Origin: an uncultured Thermotogae bacterium
GTDB lineage: Bacteria; Bipolaricaulota; Bipolaricaulia; RBG-16-55-9
Assembly: GCA_964567595.1 (NCBI GenBank)
Contig: CAZMNF010000002.1
Span: 39,149-103,148, forward strand
DNA: 64,000 nucleotides
Reading direction: 5' to 3'
Part shown: positions 1 through 39,757 of the stretch, piece by piece
Layout of the letters: the number at the start of each line of letters is the position of its first letter
How positions within the stretch are numbered: position 1 is the stretch's first letter
Notes under the pieces: model-generated
Told to the model about the DNA's origin: nothing
Database searches by the model: none
Seen by the model: only the letters and a program-made list of their open reading frames with translations
Made by a program: the position numbers and the translations under genes

Positions 1-1359
1 GGCGTCCTTCTTGCCGTCCCCGTCGTCGTCCGAGCCGCCGTCGACGATCGTGCGCCGGATCAAATCGGGCTGACCGTCGTCATCCTGATCGATCACCGTC
101 TGGCGGTTCTGGCCGCCGATGTAGGGGCACTTGCCGACCCAGCCCACTTCCAGCGTCGTCGGATCGCCGTCGTCGACGCGGTGGGTGATCTTCTTGCCGA
201 AGGTGTCGTTGCTGACGCACCAGACCTCGATCTTAATGTTCTCGAATTCCCGGACGTTGGAGGGATAAAAGATGTCGGGGATGCCGTCGTTGTTGACGTC
301 CTCTCGGGTCCCGCGATTCTGAGCGGGGCAGAACTTGTCCTTGAGGCTCTGCTGCTGTTGCTGCTGTTGTTGGCGCTGTCCGTCTCCGGCCGACTGCCGC
401 TGGCGCTGGACCCCTTCGACCATGATCGCTTGGGCTTCCGTGTTGAGCGCCACTTGCTCGATTTGCTCGCCGACTTGCACGGTCTGATGCTCTTCGTCTT
501 GGCCGAGTTTGCCGGATTTCTGCGTCTGTTGCTCTTGCCGCTGGAAAGAGGCGACGATCAGCGAGCAGTCGTCATCGCGGGCCTGGACCTGGAAGCCTCG
601 CTCGCCCTGGCGTTGGACCGGCACGTCGTGGTTGATTCTGAGGTCGGCGCTCGTCTCAACCGCCCGATTCTGCTCGGGGAAGATCCACGTCCAGGTCTCG
701 CCGATGCCGTCCTTGTCGCAGTCCTGATTGACGCCGTACTGCTGCTGCTGCCCGGGCGAGCCCTGGACTTGCAGCGTCACCTGATCTTCCTCGTATTGGG
801 CGCCGACGATGTTCGTCGCCCCTTGGGCTTGGGCCTGCTTGCCCAACGGCTTGCCGTCGGAGCCGACCGGCGGCGCGTTGAAGTCGGGGTCCTCGGTCTC
901 GCGCCCTTCCCACTTCGGCTCCGGGTCGAAGCCCTCGCGCTGGCACGGGCTGACCGTGACCGTCGTGGAGGCGCTGGCGGTGCCGCCGCCCGAGGACGCC
1001 TCGATCTCGACGCGCAGCGTCCCGCCGCCCTCAAGCGTCAAATCGAACGTCACTTGACCCGAGGCGGCGTTGCGCGTCTGGGTCAACGTCCGTCCGTCCG
1101 GCAGGACGAGGGTAATGCTGACGTCCGGGCTCTCGGCGTCAGTGACGGTCCATTCAGCGGTGACGCGATGGGATGTCTGCTTCCCGCAGATCGCCTCGCC
1201 GCTGGCCGAGACCTGCACGCCGATGGCCGCCGTTCGGCCCAACACCGTCTGCTCCAGTGGCCGTCCTGCATCGGAAAGAACAAACATTCCGCCAACGATG
1301 AGCGTCAGCAGCGCTGTTGCGATCTTAAGTCCTCGGCGTCGTCCAAGTCGATCGTTCAT
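1..1359 (-). CDS. Anchored or secreted Asp/Gln-rich protein with DxDxDG-type putative Ca-binding loops (N-terminal 453 codons; the gene runs off the left edge, so it is absent from the ORF track)
   Basis: Hand translation of the minus strand from ATG 1359..1357 is stop-free to position 1: MNDRLGRRRGLKIATALLTLIVGG... It contains a poly-Q run (QRQQQQQQQQS) and the loops NNDGIPD, DQDDDGQPD and SDDDGDGKKD. GGAGG lies upstream, and there is an ATGA overlap (1356..1359) with the stop of the upstream gene. Confidence 0.6.
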   Translation of the reverse strand, partial: MNDRLGRRRGLKIATALLTLIVGGMFVLSDAGRPLEQTVLGRTAAIGVQVSASGEAICGKQTSHRVTAEWTVTDAESPDVSITLVLPDGRTLTQTRNAASGQVTFDLTLEGGGTLRVEIEASSGGGTASASTTVTVSPCQREGFDPEPKWEGRETEDPDFNAPPVGSDGKPLGKQAQAQGATNIVGAQYEEDQVTLQVQGSPGQQQQYGVNQDCDKDGIGETWTWIFPEQNRAVETSADLRINHDVPVQRQGERGFQVQARDDDCSLIVASFQRQEQQTQKSGKLGQDEEHQTVQVGEQIEQVALNTEAQAIMVEGVQRQRQSAGDGQRQQQQQQQQSLKDKFCPAQNRGTREDVNNDGIPDIFYPSNVREFENIKIEVWCVSNDTFGKKITHRVDDGDPTTLEVGWVGKCPYIGGQNRQTVIDQDDDGQPDLIRRTIVDGGSDDDGDGKKDA

Positions 1360-2057
1360 GATGAATCGTTCGCCTCCTTCTCGGTAGATGGTTGAGCGTC
1401 CGACGCCTCATGGGAGTCGGCGGACGTCTTGGTTTCGATCTGCCGTTCGAGCTTCGAGCGCTCGACTGAGCCCTCGCGTTTCCAGACGACGATGCCGCGA
1501 GCGTCGATCAGGAACGTGGCCGGCAGGCTGGCCACGCGATACGTCGTGGCCACCTCGCCCGTCCGATCGATCGCCAGCGGATAGTCCGCGCCGACGCGCT
1601 CGGCGAACGCGCGCACCGTTGGTTTTGCTTCGCCGACGTTCAGCCCGACCACGAGCAGGTCATCGTAGGTGCCGTCCAACGAGTTGAGCATGGGCATTTC
1701 GTGCTTGCAAAACGGACAATACGTGGCCCAGGCGTTGATCAGGACGGGCCGTCCGCGCTGTTCGCTCAGCCGAAACTGATCGCCCGCGATCGTCGAGAGC
1801 TCGAAATCGGGTGCCCGTTGGCCCACGCGGGGTCCGGTCTCGACGCCATCGTCCGAGGCGGTCTTCATCTCAGTTTCTTCCGCCTCGGCCTGCTGGGAGG
1901 TCTCACGCTGGGTCGGTTGGCCATCGTCTGCGAGCTCCGTCGTTGAGGACGAGACGGCGGGCCGATCGCCGCCCAACGATAGACTTAGCGCCAGAAGCCC
2001 GACGCCAACGGCGGCAACCGCCGTCGGCGTCCTGAGCGAGATCCAGGAGCGCGTCAT
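1356..2057 (-). CDS. TlpA/ResA-like membrane-anchored thiol:disulfide oxidoreductase (thioredoxin fold)
   Basis: WATYCPFCKHE CxxC motif, an N-terminal hydrophobic segment, and the redoxin-like block LPATFLIDARGIVV. I chose ATG 2057 because it makes an ATGA overlap with the upstream stop (2054..2057); the track start at 2069 is a GTG. Confidence 0.85.
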   Translation of the reverse strand: MTRSWISLRTPTAVAAVGVGLLALSLSLGGDRPAVSSSTTELADDGQPTQRETSQQAEAEETEMKTASDDGVETGPRVGQRAPDFELSTIAGDQFRLSEQRGRPVLINAWATYCPFCKHEMPMLNSLDGTYDDLLVVGLNVGEAKPTVRAFAERVGADYPLAIDRTGEVATTYRVASLPATFLIDARGIVVWKREGSVERSKLERQIETKTSADSHEASDAQPSTEKEANDSS

Positions 2058-5000
2058 TGTTGGATCCACCCCTGCAGCTGCAGGCTCTGCGGCGCAATGA
2101 TCAGAGGACGTGCGGCCACTTGGGCTTGGAAGTTGGGCGGCGTTGCCGACAGGAACAGAATGGGGCCTCCTTGTTGGGAGGCTCGTTGGAGATCGCGAGC
2201 CATGTTCTGCGGCAGGAAATTGTCCTCCTCGGCCGGCACGTACGACGCGTTCGCGTAGACGTTGGGATCGGGGACGTAGACCGCCAAGGGAGCGGTGGTC
2301 TCAACGCGCGAGCGCAGATACTCGCGGGTCGTCAAACACGTCGCCGTGCGGCCTTCCGATTGACAGTCGATTTGGAGTTCATTCGAGCCGGGTTGGGCCG
2401 TGTAGCTTGACGTGAAACCGCCCCCGAACTGCGCCCCATCGGCAAAGTAGACGCCAAAGATGTGGTACGGCTGCGCGCTGTTCGCGCTCAGGTTGACCGT
2501 CAGGCCATCGATGATGGTCTGCGGCAGGATGTCGCTCGGAGCCGATCGGAGCAGCTCCTTCAGTTGCTGGCTAGCTTGGAGTTTGAGTGTCGGCGTTGCG
2601 GACGAATCGTCCCCGCCTTCGCCATTGGTGGCTTGGACCTCGATGCGAACCGTCAACGTGCCGACGGCTTGGTTGGCGAAATTGAACAGGCGGTAGACGA
2701 CCTCATACGTCTCCGTACGGTTCGGAAGAAAGCCGTCCAGTTGGCCGGTGTTGCTGTCGAAACTGATCTGGAACCCGACGTCGGACGGCAGAGAGCTGGA
2801 CACCTTGTCGACGCTGATGACGCCGTTGTTATCGAGGTCATTCCTCAATTCTGACGGGATCTCCCGAGCGGCCACGTGGAACTGGCCCCCGTCGAAGGTG
2901 CCGAAATCCCACGTCAATTGGAGGTTGGACGTCGATTCGGACTGACAGGAGATCTCCTGAACTGACCGGTTGTTGCCCTCGTTCGACTCGGCAACGCGGT
3001 CGCTCGGATCGGCCATGGCGGTCAAGGCGACGTTGGCTTCGTCGCAAAGGAACTCAAAGAACGTCAAGGTCCGCGTCTGCCCCGCACCCAGGCGCGAGAC
3101 GCTCTGCGATCGTTGTTCGTTGGAGCCACTCACCTGGACGTTGAAGCTTCGGGTTACGGCCGCGGAGCCGCGGTTGCGGACCGTAACGTCGAGGCTGAAC
3201 GTGCCACCCCGGCTCGGTTCGCCAGGCGACGCTGAGATGGACTCGATCACGAGATCGGCCTCTTGAGCGACCTCCTCGCGCTCGGCCTCATAGATCGCTG
3301 AGACGGAGGCGTTCTGGCTCGGCATGGACAGCGTCGTGCGCGCGTTGGTCGAGATCTGGTTGCCGCCCCGCTCCCAGGCGACGAACTGGAGCGTCGTGCC
3401 GTTCTGCGCCACCGACGAGGGCGCATTGAGCGTCACCTGCCTGCCCGAGGCGTAGGGCTTGCTGAACGGCGTCGTCCGCGTGAATTGGCCGCTGTTGTCC
3501 TGGACGGAGATGTCGACGTTGAGGCGACGGATGCTCGACGCCACGCCCGTTTCCGAGCTCGAGCGATCGCGGGCGAAGGCGTCGACGTTCAAGATGGGCA
3601 ACCGCTCGCAGCTGCCTTGCAGGCACTCCTCGTTCAGGGTTGCCTCGGTGGTGGCTTGGAACTGGCCGAGCAGATCGACGGACGCGTCGGCAACCGACTG
3701 GGCTTCAGCAGCGGCCTGGGCTTGAGCGTTGGCCAGCGCGGCCACGTTGGCTGTAGCGTCGGCCCGGGCTCTTGCCTCGGCTTCGGCCTCGGCGCTCGCC
3801 TCGGCGGCTGCTTGGGCGTTTGCGGTCGCCTCGGCCAGGGTGCTCGCCTGCGCGGATGCCTGCGCCTCGGCGTCGGCGATCGCCTGCGCACTGGCGGCCG
3901 TCTCCGCGCGGGCCTGGGCCAAAGCGCTCGCCGCCGCGCGCGCGCTTGCCACGGCGTCGGCCTGCGCCTGGGCTGCTGCCTGAGCCGCCGCGTTCGCCTG
4001 GACTTGAGCTTCCACGCCCGTTTGGGCGGCGGCGTGGGCCTGGGCGGCGGCGCTGGCCTGAGCATTGGCCGCTGCCATGGCCTGGCTGCTCGCGTCCGCT
4101 TGTGCTGCGGCAAATGCCTCCGCCGCGGCTTGGACGTTCGTCTGCGCCTGCGACTGTGCCTGCGCCAACGCCTTGGTGGCCGTCGCCACCGACGCTTGCG
4201 CGCTCGCCTGGGCGCTCGCGGCCGCTTGGGCTTCGGTTTGGGCTTGGGCGGAGGCCTGAACGGCCGCCTGCACCTGCGAGGCAACCTCCTGGAGGTTGCC
4301 GTTTGACGCCGCGTCGGTCGCGGCTTGCGCAGCTGATTCCGCTTCGGATGCCGCCTCGGCGGCGGCCTCGGCACGCGAGGACGCCTCCGCTTCCGCCTCG
4401 GCCAGCGCCTCCGCCAGTGCCTCCGCCTCCGCCTCGGCGTTGGCCTGAGCTTTGGCGATGGCTTCAGCGGAGGCCTCGGCTCGACTCACCGCCTCGCTGA
4501 ACGCTTGCGCGAGGGCTTCGGCGGCGGATTGCGCCTCCGAGCGGGCCTCGGCAGCCGCCTCCGCTTCCGCCTCGGCGGTTGCCTGCGCTTCGGCGAGCGC
4601 CTGGGCGGCGGCTTCGGCCTGCGCCTTGGCTTCAGCGGCCGCCTCGGCTGCGGCTTGCGCCTCGGATTGGGCCGTGCCCTCGGCCTTCGAAGCCGCCTCG
4701 GCCGCGGCCTCAGCCGCGGCCACGGCCTTGGCCCGGGCGTCCGCCACGGCCTGGGCAAGCGACTCGGCTCGGGATGCCGCTTGGGCCGCGGCCGTCGCAT
4801 GGGCGTTCGCCCGCGCCTGCGCGGACGCCGCCGCGTCGGCCTCGGCTTGAGCCACGCTCAGCGCTTGTCCGACGGCGGACGCCGACGCATCGGCGGACGC
4901 GCTGGAGCGCGCCAACGCGTCGACGTAGGCGTTGGCAACGCCCTCGACGTTGGTCGTCACCTGGCCGCATTCGAACTCGTTGACGATCTCATCCCGAAAG

Positions 5001-5746
5001 GTCTCCGTGCGATCCCGCGCGCTCGCTTCGGCGCCGTCGACGGATTCCGCTGCGGATGAGGCCCGATCGCGGGCTTGGGCCGCGTCGGAGGCGTTCGCTT
5101 CGGCTTCGGCGCTCGATTCCGCCGTGGCCTCGGCGCTCGCTTGCGCGCTGGCTTGCGCCTGCGCCGCCGCCTCGGCGCGACTGCTCGCGCGTGCGTTGGC
5201 CTCGGCGGCCGATTCGGCCTGCGACGCCGCCAACGACGAGGCCGACGCAGCGGCTTCGGCGGTGGCCTGGGCTGAGCTTTCCGCGGCTGCTTGAGCTTGG
5301 GCGGCGGCCTCGGAGATCACCGAGAGCTGCTCGCTCACTTGCGCCTTGGCTTCCGATATGGCGCTTACGGATGCCTGGGCGCGGGTCTCCGCTTGCGCGG
5401 CCGCCTGGGCGATCGCGTCCGCCTGGGATTTCGCCTGAGCCTGCGCCTCGCTGACCGATTCAGCAAAGGCCCGAGCCCGAGAGAGCGCCTCCGATAGGCT
5501 CTCCACCCGAGATCGCGCGTTGGCCACCTCTCGATCGCGCGACTCGGCAATGGCGGATGCGGCGGACTCGGCTCGACTGGCGGCTTGGGTGGCCGCCTCG
5601 GCGGCGTTCTGCGCGGTGGTTGCAAGCTCAGATGGGACCTTGCCATCCTCAGGTCCGCCTTCTTGGGCCGATCCGAGATGGAGCATCGTGGTCAAGCTGA
5701 GCAACAGTAGCCCGGCGAGTAGCGCCCACCTTCGATTTGAGGTCAT
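2054..5746 (-). CDS. Giant (about 1,230 aa) exported Ala-rich protein with C-terminal beta-rich modules (InlB-B-repeat-like, CARDB-like, Ig-like)
   Basis: AAAGGAGG lies 7 nt upstream of ATG 5746 (MTSNRRWALLAGLLLLSL...LGSAQE signal/anchor). About 650 aa are A/Q/E/S low complexity. The CARDB-like block is DLVIESISASPGEP...DPSDRVAESNEGNN; the B-repeat-like block is GRQVTLNAPSS...FVAWERGG. Confidence 0.8.
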   Translation of the reverse strand: MTSNRRWALLAGLLLLSLTTMLHLGSAQEGGPEDGKVPSELATTAQNAAEAATQAASRAESAASAIAESRDREVANARSRVESLSEALSRARAFAESVSEAQAQAKSQADAIAQAAAQAETRAQASVSAISEAKAQVSEQLSVISEAAAQAQAAAESSAQATAEAAASASSLAASQAESAAEANARASSRAEAAAQAQASAQASAEATAESSAEAEANASDAAQARDRASSAAESVDGAEASARDRTETFRDEIVNEFECGQVTTNVEGVANAYVDALARSSASADASASAVGQALSVAQAEADAAASAQARANAHATAAAQAASRAESLAQAVADARAKAVAAAEAAAEAASKAEGTAQSEAQAAAEAAAEAKAQAEAAAQALAEAQATAEAEAEAAAEARSEAQSAAEALAQAFSEAVSRAEASAEAIAKAQANAEAEAEALAEALAEAEAEASSRAEAAAEAASEAESAAQAATDAASNGNLQEVASQVQAAVQASAQAQTEAQAAASAQASAQASVATATKALAQAQSQAQTNVQAAAEAFAAAQADASSQAMAAANAQASAAAQAHAAAQTGVEAQVQANAAAQAAAQAQADAVASARAAASALAQARAETAASAQAIADAEAQASAQASTLAEATANAQAAAEASAEAEAEARARADATANVAALANAQAQAAAEAQSVADASVDLLGQFQATTEATLNEECLQGSCERLPILNVDAFARDRSSSETGVASSIRRLNVDISVQDNSGQFTRTTPFSKPYASGRQVTLNAPSSVAQNGTTLQFVAWERGGNQISTNARTTLSMPSQNASVSAIYEAEREEVAQEADLVIESISASPGEPSRGGTFSLDVTVRNRGSAAVTRSFNVQVSGSNEQRSQSVSRLGAGQTRTLTFFEFLCDEANVALTAMADPSDRVAESNEGNNRSVQEISCQSESTSNLQLTWDFGTFDGGQFHVAAREIPSELRNDLDNNGVISVDKVSSSLPSDVGFQISFDSNTGQLDGFLPNRTETYEVVYRLFNFANQAVGTLTVRIEVQATNGEGGDDSSATPTLKLQASQQLKELLRSAPSDILPQTIIDGLTVNLSANSAQPYHIFGVYFADGAQFGGGFTSSYTAQPGSNELQIDCQSEGRTATCLTTREYLRSRVETTAPLAVYVPDPNVYANASYVPAEEDNFLPQNMARDLQRASQQGGPILFLSATPPNFQAQVAARPLIIAPQSLQLQGWIQQ
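3680..5630 (-). repeat. Low-complexity coding region: alternating Ala-x (x = E/Q/S/T/N) tracts in two blocks split by a Cys-containing linker at about 4921..5000
   Basis: Runs such as AEAEAEALAEALAEAEAEA and SAQASAQASAEATAESSAEAEA. In a hand-counted 139-residue stretch, 71 residues are Ala. All six frames are open here because of the GCN-rich codon periodicity. Confidence 0.85.
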
Positions 5747-6044
5747 CACGTAGCCTCCTTTCGTAGAGTCCTCCACGGCTTTTCAATTGAGTGGAGGTTC
5801 GTCTTCCCCATCGCCATGAGGGTGACGTCACAGATCGATTCCAGACTTTTAACACATTCGCGTTAACATTCCGTTAACTCTCCTTTGCTACATTTTTGAG
5901 GGCCGTTATGATGATCTGTGTTGGAGCATTACGAGCTCGAGTCAACGCACCTTTGCCAGAGCTATGGATCTGCTGTCGATCCGTCATCGATCCCCGTCAA
6001 CCGCACCCGACCCGGGTCGTCCGACAGTCGATCGGCTGAGGCGG

Positions 6045-37016: not shown

Positions 37017-37528
37017 GGCATCGTCCTCCTTTGCGCATGTGTCGGATTGTAGACGGGCGTTTGAGCGTAATCGAGACCGTCCCTGATGCCAAGCCCGGTC
37101 GCGAGCGTCCGAGGCTCTCACGGGTCCCGCGCCAGTGGCAGGGGAGTGGCACATCTCCCGCCCAACCAACTGGCCTCGGATTTTATAGCCCGCCTGCTGA
37201 AGCGGCACGCAACGCGCGATCCCCGTGTGGTTGTTGGTCCCAAGATTTGCGAGGGCAGTGGCCACGCTGGCCAGGGCGTCCCAGGTCCGCATTCGCATTG
37301 ACGGGGATCGCATCCCGTTCTCGGTAAGCCCCGCCAGCGAGATAAACGGCCAGAGCCCGATGCCTGGAACGGGCCGCGCAGGACGAGCTGCCGCGCCTGC
37401 TAGGAGCTTGACGCGCCTCATTGTCAGTCTCTTGCTAATGCCGTAACCTGAAAGTGCTGAGCTGTGTCATCATCTTAAGCAACGTGTCAGTCCAAGCTGA
37501 CCCATCTCCCTAAGGAGGGATGCCCCCG

Positions 37529-38557
<1,029 letters not shown>

Positions 38558-38563
38558 GCCTCG

Positions 38564-39757
38564 ATGAGGACGAAGAAGACGCTCGACGACGTTGACGTCC
38601 GGGGCCAGCACGTCCTCGTTCGCGTGGACTTCAACGTTCCGCTATCCGAGGGGACCGTCGCCGACGACACCCGAATTCGCGCGGCGTTGCCGACGATCCG
38701 GGATCTGGTCGAATCGGGCGCCCGGGTGGTGCTCTGTTCGCACCTCGGGCGCCCCAAGGGCGAGCGAGACGACTCGCTCAGCCTACGTCCGGCCGCCGAG
38801 CGGCTCGCCCAGTTGCTCGACCAGGACGTGGAGACGGCCGACGACTGTGTTGGCGACGACGTCGAGGCCCAGGTGGAGCAGCTGACACCCGGGCGGGTTC
38901 TGTTGTTGGAGAACACGCGGTTCCACGCCGAGGAAAAGCAGAACGAGACCGACTTTTCCCAACAGCTCGCCAACCTGGCCGACGTCTACGTCAACGACGC
39001 GTTCGGGGCAGCCCATCGCGCTCACGCATCCACGGAGGGCGTCGCTCATCACGTCGAGACGGCGGTGATGGGCCGACTGATGGAGACGGAACTGGTCGCC
39101 ATCGCCCAAGCCATCGAACGCCCGGAGCGTCCGCTGGTGGCGGTTCTGGGCGGCGCCAAGATCAGCGACAAGATCGGCGTCCTCCAAAAGTTGCGCGAGG
39201 TGGCCGACACGGTGCTCGTCGGCGGCGGCATGGCCAACACCTTTCTCAAAGCCCGGGGAATCGACGTGGGCACATCGCTCGTCGAGGACGATGCCCTTGA
39301 CGAAGCGAAGCGACTCATGGCGGCGTTCGGTGACGCGCTGGTGTTGCCCGTCGATGCCGTCGTGGCGCCCGAGGTCGACGCAAGCGCCGACCGCCGCACG
39401 GTTGCCATCGATGATATCCCCGAGGGTTGGAAAATCCTCGACATCGGGCCTGAGACGATCACGACGTTCAATGGCCACCTCCGAGATGCGATGACGGTCG
39501 TCTGGAACGGGCCAATGGGCGTCTTTGAAGTCGAGCCGTACGCGGCGGGGACGTTCGCGATCGCACGAACTTTGGCGGAATTGAACGCCATCACGGTCGT
39601 CGGTGGCGGTGAATCCGGCGCGGCCGTCGATCAGGCCGGCGTCGTCGATCAGCTCACGCACGTCTCCACCGGCGGCGGCGCGTTCCTGACGTTGCTCGAA
39701 GGGAGCGAGCTGCCCGGCGTCGCCGTTCTCGACGACCGCGGGGCGGGCTCTCCATAA
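38564..39757 (+). CDS. pgk: Phosphoglycerate kinase
   Basis: VRVDFNVP, SHLGRPKG and GGGMANTFL blocks. Confidence 0.95.
   Translation: MRTKKTLDDVDVRGQHVLVRVDFNVPLSEGTVADDTRIRAALPTIRDLVESGARVVLCSHLGRPKGERDDSLSLRPAAERLAQLLDQDVETADDCVGDDVEAQVEQLTPGRVLLLENTRFHAEEKQNETDFSQQLANLADVYVNDAFGAAHRAHASTEGVAHHVETAVMGRLMETELVAIAQAIERPERPLVAVLGGAKISDKIGVLQKLREVADTVLVGGGMANTFLKARGIDVGTSLVEDDALDEAKRLMAAFGDALVLPVDAVVAPEVDASADRRTVAIDDIPEGWKILDIGPETITTFNGHLRDAMTVVWNGPMGVFEVEPYAAGTFAIARTLAELNAITVVGGGESGAAVDQAGVVDQLTHVSTGGGAFLTLLEGSELPGVAVLDDRGAGSP

Follow-up and report, generated by a model that had tools for sequence, protein, structure and literature searches.

The 64,000-nt window analysed here, a stretch of contig CAZMNF010000002.1 from an uncultured member of the Bipolaricaulota, carries on its minus strand a gene for a long protein with an extended Ala-rich tract, referred to below as the rod protein. 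An earlier note on this DNA had described window positions 3680-5630 as about 650 residues of strictly alternating Ala and other residues (Ala-x), resembling EAK-type self-assembling peptides or one extremely long helix. That span corresponds, on the minus strand, to residues ~49-699 of the open reading frame (ORF) at 2054..5776, and all three sequence strings quoted in the note are found there. The tract combines its Ala-x pattern with a hidden period of 32/9 residues, is laid out in three segments joined by conserved turns, changes length in quantised and concerted steps, and is distributed across the phylum. Residues 49-713 are probably the shaft of an extracytoplasmic rod, a single-chain antiparallel three-helix coiled coil of ~32 nm, for which a role as an envelope strut or stalk is proposed. 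The parts of the gene on which this reading is built are the following, in window coordinates; ranges from the AlphaFold2 (AF2) model use mature numbering, to which 37 is added to obtain ORF numbering.

2054..5776, minus strand: rod protein gene, an ORF of 1240 codons from a GTG at 5776, frame intact
5666..5746, minus strand: signal peptide, residues 11-37, predicted cleavage between GSA and QE, read by eye from the sequence
4976..5632, minus strand: helix 1, residues 49-267 (AF2 helix 12-230), Ala on the even register with a phase-coherent period 2
4967..4975, minus strand: turn 1, Phe268-Glu269-Cys270, then Gly271 (AF2 break 231-233, also seen in the alignment)
4304..4966, minus strand: helix 2, residues 271-491 (AF2 helix 234-454)
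4295..4303, minus strand: turn 2, Asn492-Gly493-Asn494 (AF2 break 455-457), where the Ala register shifts by one residue
3638..4294, minus strand: helix 3, residues 495-713 (AF2 helix 458-676)
3608..3625, minus strand: C-x4-C (Cys718, Cys723) directly after helix 3, invariant alignment columns

Translation likely begins at the ATG at 5746 (Met11, MTSNRRW), which gives a protein of 1230 residues that, judging from its signal peptide, appears to be secreted. All full-length homologues have a small-x-small site followed by Gln and none has a lipobox (both read by eye), so that the cleavable-looking signal peptides speak against the earlier view of an element anchored at the N-terminus. The host genome assembly (2.1 Mb in 103 contigs, 65 % G+C) holds no second ORF of the Ala-x type, and there is one rod gene per genome.

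The tract (residues 49-713) is 43-50 % Ala. Across residues 51-700, Ala occupies 283 of 650 positions (43.5 %), reaching 48-50 % in the last 400 residues, and is accompanied by 70 Glu, 65 Gln and 73 Ser; the same span contains 7 Gly, 0 Pro and 33 Lys plus Arg (5 %; Lys alone 7/650, or 1 %) vs 87 Glu plus Asp. The description of the tract as net acidic, poor in Lys and Arg and free of Pro was thus accurate, but not its supposed lack of Gly breaks, since the conserved Gly271, the invariant Gly279 and Gly493 lie at or beside the turns. Residues 714-1240 have an ordinary composition.

The autocorrelation and Fourier analyses that the earlier note had proposed confirm the dipeptide periodicity as real and extreme and reveal an additional period at 3.54-3.56 residues. 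For Ala, the autocorrelation falls to -0.35 at lag 1, rises to +0.37 at lag 2 and remains at 0.34-0.48 for even lags up to 22 (standard deviation in shuffles, 0.04), and spectral power reaches 105 at period 2.0 for an expectation of ~1. Nothing resembling this period 2 occurs in the C-terminal 540 residues. The tract is not a single run, as had been supposed: the Ala register is coherent for ~200 residues, passes through a non-periodic break at ~255-290, resumes for ~200 residues, moves out of phase by one residue at NGN (492-494) and then continues for ~200 more.

A further peak, at 3.55-3.57, is present in the spectra of both Ala and hydrophobicity. The hydrophobicity signal was compared with a parity-preserving shuffle, in which residues are permuted separately among even and odd positions and the Ala-x pattern is retained (n = 5000). 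Summed over the three segments, hydrophobicity power at 32/9 is 29.3, whereas the shuffles average 2.1 and never exceed 8.1 (0/5000 as high). The best period is 3.543, and power is just 4.7 at 3.5, 5.9 at 3.6 and 1.5 at 3.667. Taken individually, helices 1 and 2 have powers of 11.1 and 15.2 at 32/9, with 0/5000 shuffles higher in either case. Among nine homologues, a hydrophobicity peak at 3.53-3.57 ranks first or second in 22 of 23 segments and third in the remaining one. Many homologue segments also peak near 4.58 (32/7), 16 and 2.29, the first of which is the 32/7 alias that comes from sampling every second residue.

When all segments are folded on 32 columns, the even columns are 71-91 % Ala across the family; the alternation therefore stands as the earlier note had described it, but its strictness does not. 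The odd columns hold Glu, Gln, Ser, Lys or Arg, except for columns 1, 5 and 19 (and more weakly 15, 23 and 29), which take Ala, Ile, Val, Leu, Cys and Phe. At 101.25 degrees per residue, these hydrophobic odd columns share one helical face with the best-conserved Ala columns 4, 8, 12, 22 and 26. The core columns are 1, 5, 8, 12, 15, 19, 22, 26 and 29 of 32, with spacing 4-3-4-3-4-3-4-3-4; this is a small or hydrophobic core spaced by three and four residues as in coiled coils, and its period (32/9 = 3.556) falls within their range of 3.5-3.67. To judge by this profile, the 32-residue unit appears to be a coiled coil built from three heptads and one hendecad. The Ala-x period and the helical period can coexist because 16 dipeptides equal 32 residues, which equal nine turns. 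On the surface of such a helix, the i/i+4 ridges would alternate between all-Ala and all-polar and wind once around the helix per 32 residues, and a polar ridge arriving at the core line would switch to hydrophobic residues. Family-wide conservation is highest for core-face Ala (0.79), followed by other Ala (0.68), odd core positions (0.27) and odd surface positions (0.19), which indicates that selection acts on the pattern and not on the sequence.

A six-frame search of relatives recovered full-length homologues that share the layout of the window protein, at loci of 49-76 % G+C. One copy is present in 63 of 184 Bipolaricaulota genomes, representing 32 of 54 genera. When eight members are aligned, gaps come in blocks of exactly 32 columns, with one block in each segment. 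Lengths were measured between three landmarks, the N-terminal motif, the turn-1 Cys and C-x4-C, and each class is named by the length of helix 1 followed by that of helices 2 and 3 together:

Class 187/384: one member fully measured, and a second with helix 2+3 = 384
Class 219-220/448: the window protein, its same-genus orthologue (71 % identity) and three more
Class 251/512: one member
Class 249/539-541: 17 loci, with 32 more residues per helix plus 27-29 residues at turn 2
Class 222/476: one member
Class about 91/193: a mini-rod, fused behind another domain

Each 32-residue change in helix 1 is paired with a 64-residue change in helices 2 and 3, and length is conserved over deep divergence, as the 249/539 class includes 13 loci from separate genomes that are ~42-44 % identical to the window protein. 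That the segments keep equal lengths implies that they lie side by side, and this is the strongest argument for an antiparallel three-helix bundle. The turns are conserved as well. Around turn 1, Cys270 is conserved, and the family members whose turn-1 region was covered share the motif C-x(1,2)-V-x(2,3)-E-x-x-G, some with Gln or Asn in place of Glu. At turn 2, G-[NDK]-[LVI] is conserved within the length class of the window protein.

Two of these classes have peculiarities of their own. The mini-rod (L008, G033:C267) is an 851-residue ORF in which an unrelated N-terminal domain of ~265 residues precedes the rod; each helix is four 32-residue units shorter (helix 1 ~91 residues, helices 2 and 3 193 residues), and Trp, Tyr and Phe are abundant at its x positions. 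In L006, L009 and P0006 of the 249/539 class, many Cys occur at core x positions at intervals of 14 and 18 residues, which correspond to columns 5 and 19 of the 32-residue unit.

At the DNA level, the tract is an old, diverged periodic sequence with no recent expansion. No exact direct repeat in it exceeds 21 nt, the identity between in-register 96-nt units is 45-55 %, and the Tandem Repeats Finder reports only short imperfect 6-24-nt arrays. These figures, together with the identical segment lengths of the same-genus full-length orthologue, do not fit the slippage-prone repeat that had been predicted. A collapsed-repeat assembly artefact is likewise unlikely, because an independent assembly from the same genus has the same segment lengths and because long DNA repeats are absent. 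Nine further ORFs of 104-273 codons, in other frames or on the plus strand, overlap the tract at window positions 3485-5454 (for example 3485..4306 on the plus strand and 3634..4374 on the minus strand). They are rich in Arg, Pro and Gly and are by-products of the GCN periodicity rather than genes.

Beyond the relatives, true family members are marked by an end motif, [DE]-P-x-C-L-x3-C. A profile search of 1.84 billion protein representatives gave 1488 matches, of which only about ten clusters carry this motif. The other ~1480 are without it and were set aside as unrelated low-complexity A/E/K tracts, "AQAQADIKQTY" repeat proteins and mucin-like proteins. Among them, P0012, P0018, P0023, P0024 and ~20 more are giant proteins of 1300-2750 residues with LamG-like N-terminal parts and dozens of ~12-13-residue F/Y-[AG]-Q-[AS]-Q-A-D-I-K-Q-T-Y repeats, which match the Ala-x profile by composition only; they look, from their sequences, like phage or tail-fibre-type proteins. 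No Pfam or NCBIfam model matches the tract, a sequence search of the PDB with the tract returned poly-AQ and poly-NA low complexity only and no homologous structure, and no description of the rod family was found in the searchable literature.

AF2 was run on the mature single chain with an alignment of eight sequences. The model contains three helices with three-residue breaks at F-E-C and N-G-N and has a mean predicted local distance difference test (pLDDT) score of 75.9. Scores above 90 are seen near the helix ends that adjoin turn 1, and scores of 80-88 at the tip with turn 2; the raised values extend to where helix 1 begins and helix 3 ends, both distant from the turns in sequence. A Foldseek search with the rod model placed a chain of the Umb1 toxin particle at the top, a match that is not meaningful (E = 0.014, template modelling (TM) score 0.11).

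Taken together, the equal segment lengths, the conserved turns, the helical seam and the pLDDT profile of the AF2 model argue well for intramolecular packing of the three segments into a rod of ~32 nm (28 and 37 nm in other classes). More modestly, the evidence points to a strut or stalk in the envelope, rigid and fixed in length, which bears the Ig-like and CARDB domains described below, and, with similar modesty, to one rod end that may be stapled via three Cys with the help of a neighbouring redoxin.

Several observations pull in the other direction. The 32/9 signal of helix 3 is weaker in the window protein, with a power of 3.0 that is matched by 45/5000 shuffles, and Ala also makes up 71-77 % of the even positions that face outward, which a three-helix core does not explain. 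In the AF2 model, the middle of the rod has a pLDDT of only ~65, the predicted TM score is 0.42 and the alignment held just eight sequences; the apparent side-by-side packing is read from the pLDDT profile, and Foldseek with the rod model found nothing significant. In the 249/539 class, Cys pairs between helices 1 and 2 that are kept between genera fail to line up in a simple hairpin register, being displaced by 3 or 7 residues, and a search for inter-helix disulfides among the Cys positions of the Cys-rich homologues, in which pairs are offset by 3 or 7, showed nothing. Finally, neither a membrane nor a wall anchor was found in the rod protein. Staggered clusters of large residues were also sought between the three helices, with power too low for any signal.

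The alternative that survives best, improbable as it seems, is a parallel or mixed homo-oligomer, in which each segment pairs with its counterparts in other chains to give a jointed fibre of ~100 nm with two hinges, in the manner of trimeric autotransporters or M proteins. A 3.55-residue seam suits any coiled coil, the outward-facing Ala could provide extra helix-helix contacts, and AF2 modelled one chain only. Parallel segments would be free to differ in length, whereas in every class the three segments change together by 32 residues. The turns, moreover, are three residues long with a conserved Gly and hairpin-like, and the three invariant Cys converge only when the chain is folded back.

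Less probable again is a beta-sheet or silk-like material, either EAK16-type or (Ala-x)n cross-beta, whose strands would have an all-Ala face and would form fibrils or a sheath as the sole or an alternative state. The alternation of Ala and polar residues is the classic pattern of a beta amphiphile, and minor ampullate silk and zuotin are among the weak low-complexity matches. The likeness to EAK16 drawn in the earlier note holds for this alternation of small hydrophobic and polar residues, but not for balanced, patterned charges: x is mostly Gln, Ser or Glu, Lys plus Arg at 5 % leave no ionic complementarity, and the periodicity at 3.54-3.56 is helical. A beta structure would also leave the 3.55-residue hydrophobic period and the 32-residue quanta without reason, the segments are without Pro and with hardly any Gly or Asn turn residues, and AF2 predicts helix throughout.

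The single stable alpha-helix of ~100 nm that the earlier note had envisaged is very improbable. The high helix propensity and the absence of Pro would suit it, yet only 18 % of residues are charged, i/i+4 opposite-charge pairs occur at 2.8 per 100 residues, and the hydrophobic seam, the two conserved turns and the concerted 32-residue indels point to a length of ~32 nm instead. Least credible of all is a flexible low-complexity linker with a pattern imposed by GC-rich codon bias, for although the tract is 72-75 % G+C vs 65 % genome-wide and unrelated Ala-x tracts are numerous in other proteins, homologues at loci of 49-52 % G+C retain the pattern, which GC content thus does not explain, and lengths that are residue-exact across genera and Ala positions conserved at 0.68-0.79 vs 0.19 for surface x are the opposite of the freely variable linker that had been named as an outcome fatal to the earlier proposal.

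The antiparallel three-helix rod has its C-terminal domains and gene cluster as further context. The features beyond the rod itself are listed here in the order in which they are encoded:

3284..3496, minus strand: InlB B-repeat-like beta-sandwich domain (Flg_new_2), residues 761-831 (Pfam PF18998, E = 3.3e-5; AF2 pLDDT 79-89)
2966..3259, minus strand: CARDB domain, residues 840-937 (Pfam PF07705, E = 1.8e-15, 57.4 bits vs a cut-off of 22.7)
2630..2926, minus strand: immunoglobulin (Ig)-like domain of the dystroglycan/He_PIG type, residues ~951-1049 (AF2 pLDDT 77-92)
2057..2629, minus strand: C-terminal ~190 residues with no assigned fold (no Pfam match; AF2 pLDDT < 40)
1356..2069, minus strand: ResA/TlpA-like membrane-anchored thiol-disulfide oxidoreductase with a CPFC motif (Pfam AhpC-TSA/Redoxin; NCBIfam ResA, E = 2.4e-32)
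1..1359, plus 131 nt beyond the window start, minus strand: third cluster gene, coding for a secreted protein of 496 residues with a PKD-like domain and Asp-rich motifs, in 4-nt overlap with the redoxin gene
Contig C2 ~37094-39010, left of the window, minus strand: fourth gene, a YWTD beta-propeller protein of 638 residues with a signal peptide, after an 8-nt gap from the third gene

The earlier picture of an unusual structural element of very high helix propensity, with adhesion-type domains behind it, is borne out by the Flg_new_2, CARDB and Ig-like domains. The CARDB match exceeds the Pfam gathering score for residues 840-937 alone and has no bearing on the tract. The Ig-like domain is common to most homologues compared (blastp of C-terminal regions) and is matched by Foldseek to the Ig-like domain of alpha-dystroglycan with probability 1.00, while the Pfam He_PIG model does not match the rod protein. 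The C-terminal ~190 residues were found in the same-genus orthologue only, and the very C-terminus (...LQLQGWIQQ) has no hydrophobic stretch. With the C-terminal half as query, a word-indexed homologue search returned only unrelated CARDB-repeat proteins, and a search for related loci returned only the same-genus metagenome-assembled genome.

The rod and redoxin genes share 16 nt, where the end of the former overlaps the start of the latter. In 4 related genomes the redoxin gene follows immediately after the rod gene, a link limited to the window's order, and the neighbourhoods of distant family members are without a conserved operon. On the strand of the cluster, a single weak terminator-like site lies inside the third gene and none lies between genes. 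The N-terminal PKD-like beta domain of the third gene product recurs at the C-terminus of the distant rod-family members L006, L007 and L009 (blastp E = 1e-6 to 6e-8), which implies that the PKD-like module occurs either as a fusion to the rod or as the product of a neighbouring gene. The product of the fourth gene has five YWTD/LDL-receptor class B repeats (Pfam E = 4.8e-26).

An envelope role is proposed because of the signal peptide, the clustering with genes for secreted proteins and a periplasmic redoxin, and the toga and surface layer (S-layer) of the phylum. The envelope of the Bipolaricaulota is unusual and multilayered, with a Thermotoga-like toga and an S-layer (bioRxiv 10.1101/2025.11.21.689855; PMC6092417). 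On contig C57 of the host genome, locus L051 (1039..1863, minus strand) encodes 274 residues with an N-terminal signal or anchor, an S-layer homology (SLH) domain, a coiled coil of ~110 residues and a C-terminal transmembrane helix. By analogy, this architecture, which is that of Thermotoga Omp-alpha, suggests a toga-type outer layer tethered to the wall in this organism.

On the proposed mechanism, the signal peptide would be cleaved and residues 49-713 would form three alpha-helices of ~220 residues each, which would fold back at the two tight conserved turns into one bundle, with a length of 219 residues x ~0.15 nm, or ~32 nm. Ala at even positions would line the core, together with the odd core positions, the only x positions to turn hydrophobic. 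The N-terminus and turn 2 would make up one tip of the rod. At the opposite tip, Cys270 of turn 1 would meet Cys718 and Cys723, a proximity deduced from the topology, and the Ig-like and CARDB domains would emerge there, so that the rod would keep these binding domains at a defined distance, either inside a toga-type envelope or on its surface. A bolder version, which we regard as tentative and rather unlikely in its entirety, is that the Ala-x code commensurate with the helix defines a new class of coiled coil, a three-helix "ruler" whose length changes only in steps of 4.8 nm by all helices jointly, which fixes a spacing of 28, 32 or 37 nm in the toga envelope and whose rods pack laterally through their outer Ala stripes into a paracrystalline layer. 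Such lateral packing is one possible reason for the outward-facing Ala.

Long coiled coils serve the cell as rulers and struts, and their design rule is seldom so visible in a sequence as it is here. The rod family is conserved across a deep-branching and almost uncultured phylum, for which imaging of the envelope is recent and few assigned envelope proteins were found, and it thus offers a concrete candidate to localise in the Bipolaricaulota envelope. For protein design, it may provide a natural template for very long single-chain three-helix rods with an Ala core and length steps of 4.8 nm.

Among known systems, the coiled coils of hymenopteran silk are alike in their Ala-rich helical segments of ~210 residues (219-221 here), their long antiparallel rod and their small, Ala-dominated core. 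The coiled-coil rod of honeybee silk is 24.3 nm long (PMC12284834). Silk, however, is a heterotetramer of four separate paralogous chains with plain heptads, whereas the rod protein has three helices in one chain, a 32/9 period and one gene per genome. It also places Ala at every second position, including those that face outward, is bacterial and has Ig-like domains attached. No sequence homology to hymenopteran silk was found.

A second parallel lies in chemoreceptors (methyl-accepting chemotaxis proteins). As reportedly described by Alexander and Zhulin in 2007, their cytoplasmic hairpins fall into length classes that differ by symmetric whole-unit indels in the two arms, with the register kept. 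The likeness consists in a long antiparallel coiled coil, symmetric unit-sized indels and clade-wise conservation of length. In contrast, the chemoreceptor hairpin is two-armed, dimerises into a four-helix bundle, changes by a quantum of 7 residues and serves cytoplasmic signalling, while the rod protein has three arms, a quantum of 32 residues, an extracytoplasmic location and no signalling domain.

Closer in setting are Omp-alpha of Thermotoga maritima and SlpA/OmpM-type tethers, which are coiled-coil envelope spacers, occur in a toga-bearing deep-branching bacterium and conserve length over sequence. Omp-alpha begins with an SLH domain, continues as a parallel coiled coil and is anchored in the membrane at its C-terminus, whereas the rod protein has none of these three features; Pfam detects no SLH domain in it, and that of the host genome lies in the separate Omp-alpha-like gene on contig C57. 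TolA domain II, Ala-Glu-Lys spacers and zuotin-EAK16 share the Ala-x pattern with polar x and a high helix content and, in the case of TolA, the role of a spacer across the periplasm. Such tracts differ in containing 20-25 % each of Lys and Glu and in having neither a 32-residue super-repeat nor a three-segment layout, while in the rod protein Lys is at 1 % and x is mostly Gln, Ser or Glu. TolA is also anchored by an uncleaved N-terminal helix, unlike the rod protein with its cleavable-looking signal peptide, and neither Pfam nor NCBIfam finds a match to the TolA family (domain III) in the rod protein. Hundreds of A/E/K tracts match the rod-family profile by composition.

Spectrin-type repeats and the triple-helix rods of Ebh, finally, also use an antiparallel three-helix bundle of one chain as a rod element, but they string together many short bundles (~106-126 residues and ~5 nm each), where the rod protein would have a single bundle with helices of ~220 residues and a length of ~32 nm. 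While the defining features of each of these families are absent from it, the rod, as far as can be judged from sequence, appears to work like bacterial envelope coiled-coil spacers, with an Ala core that recalls bee silk.

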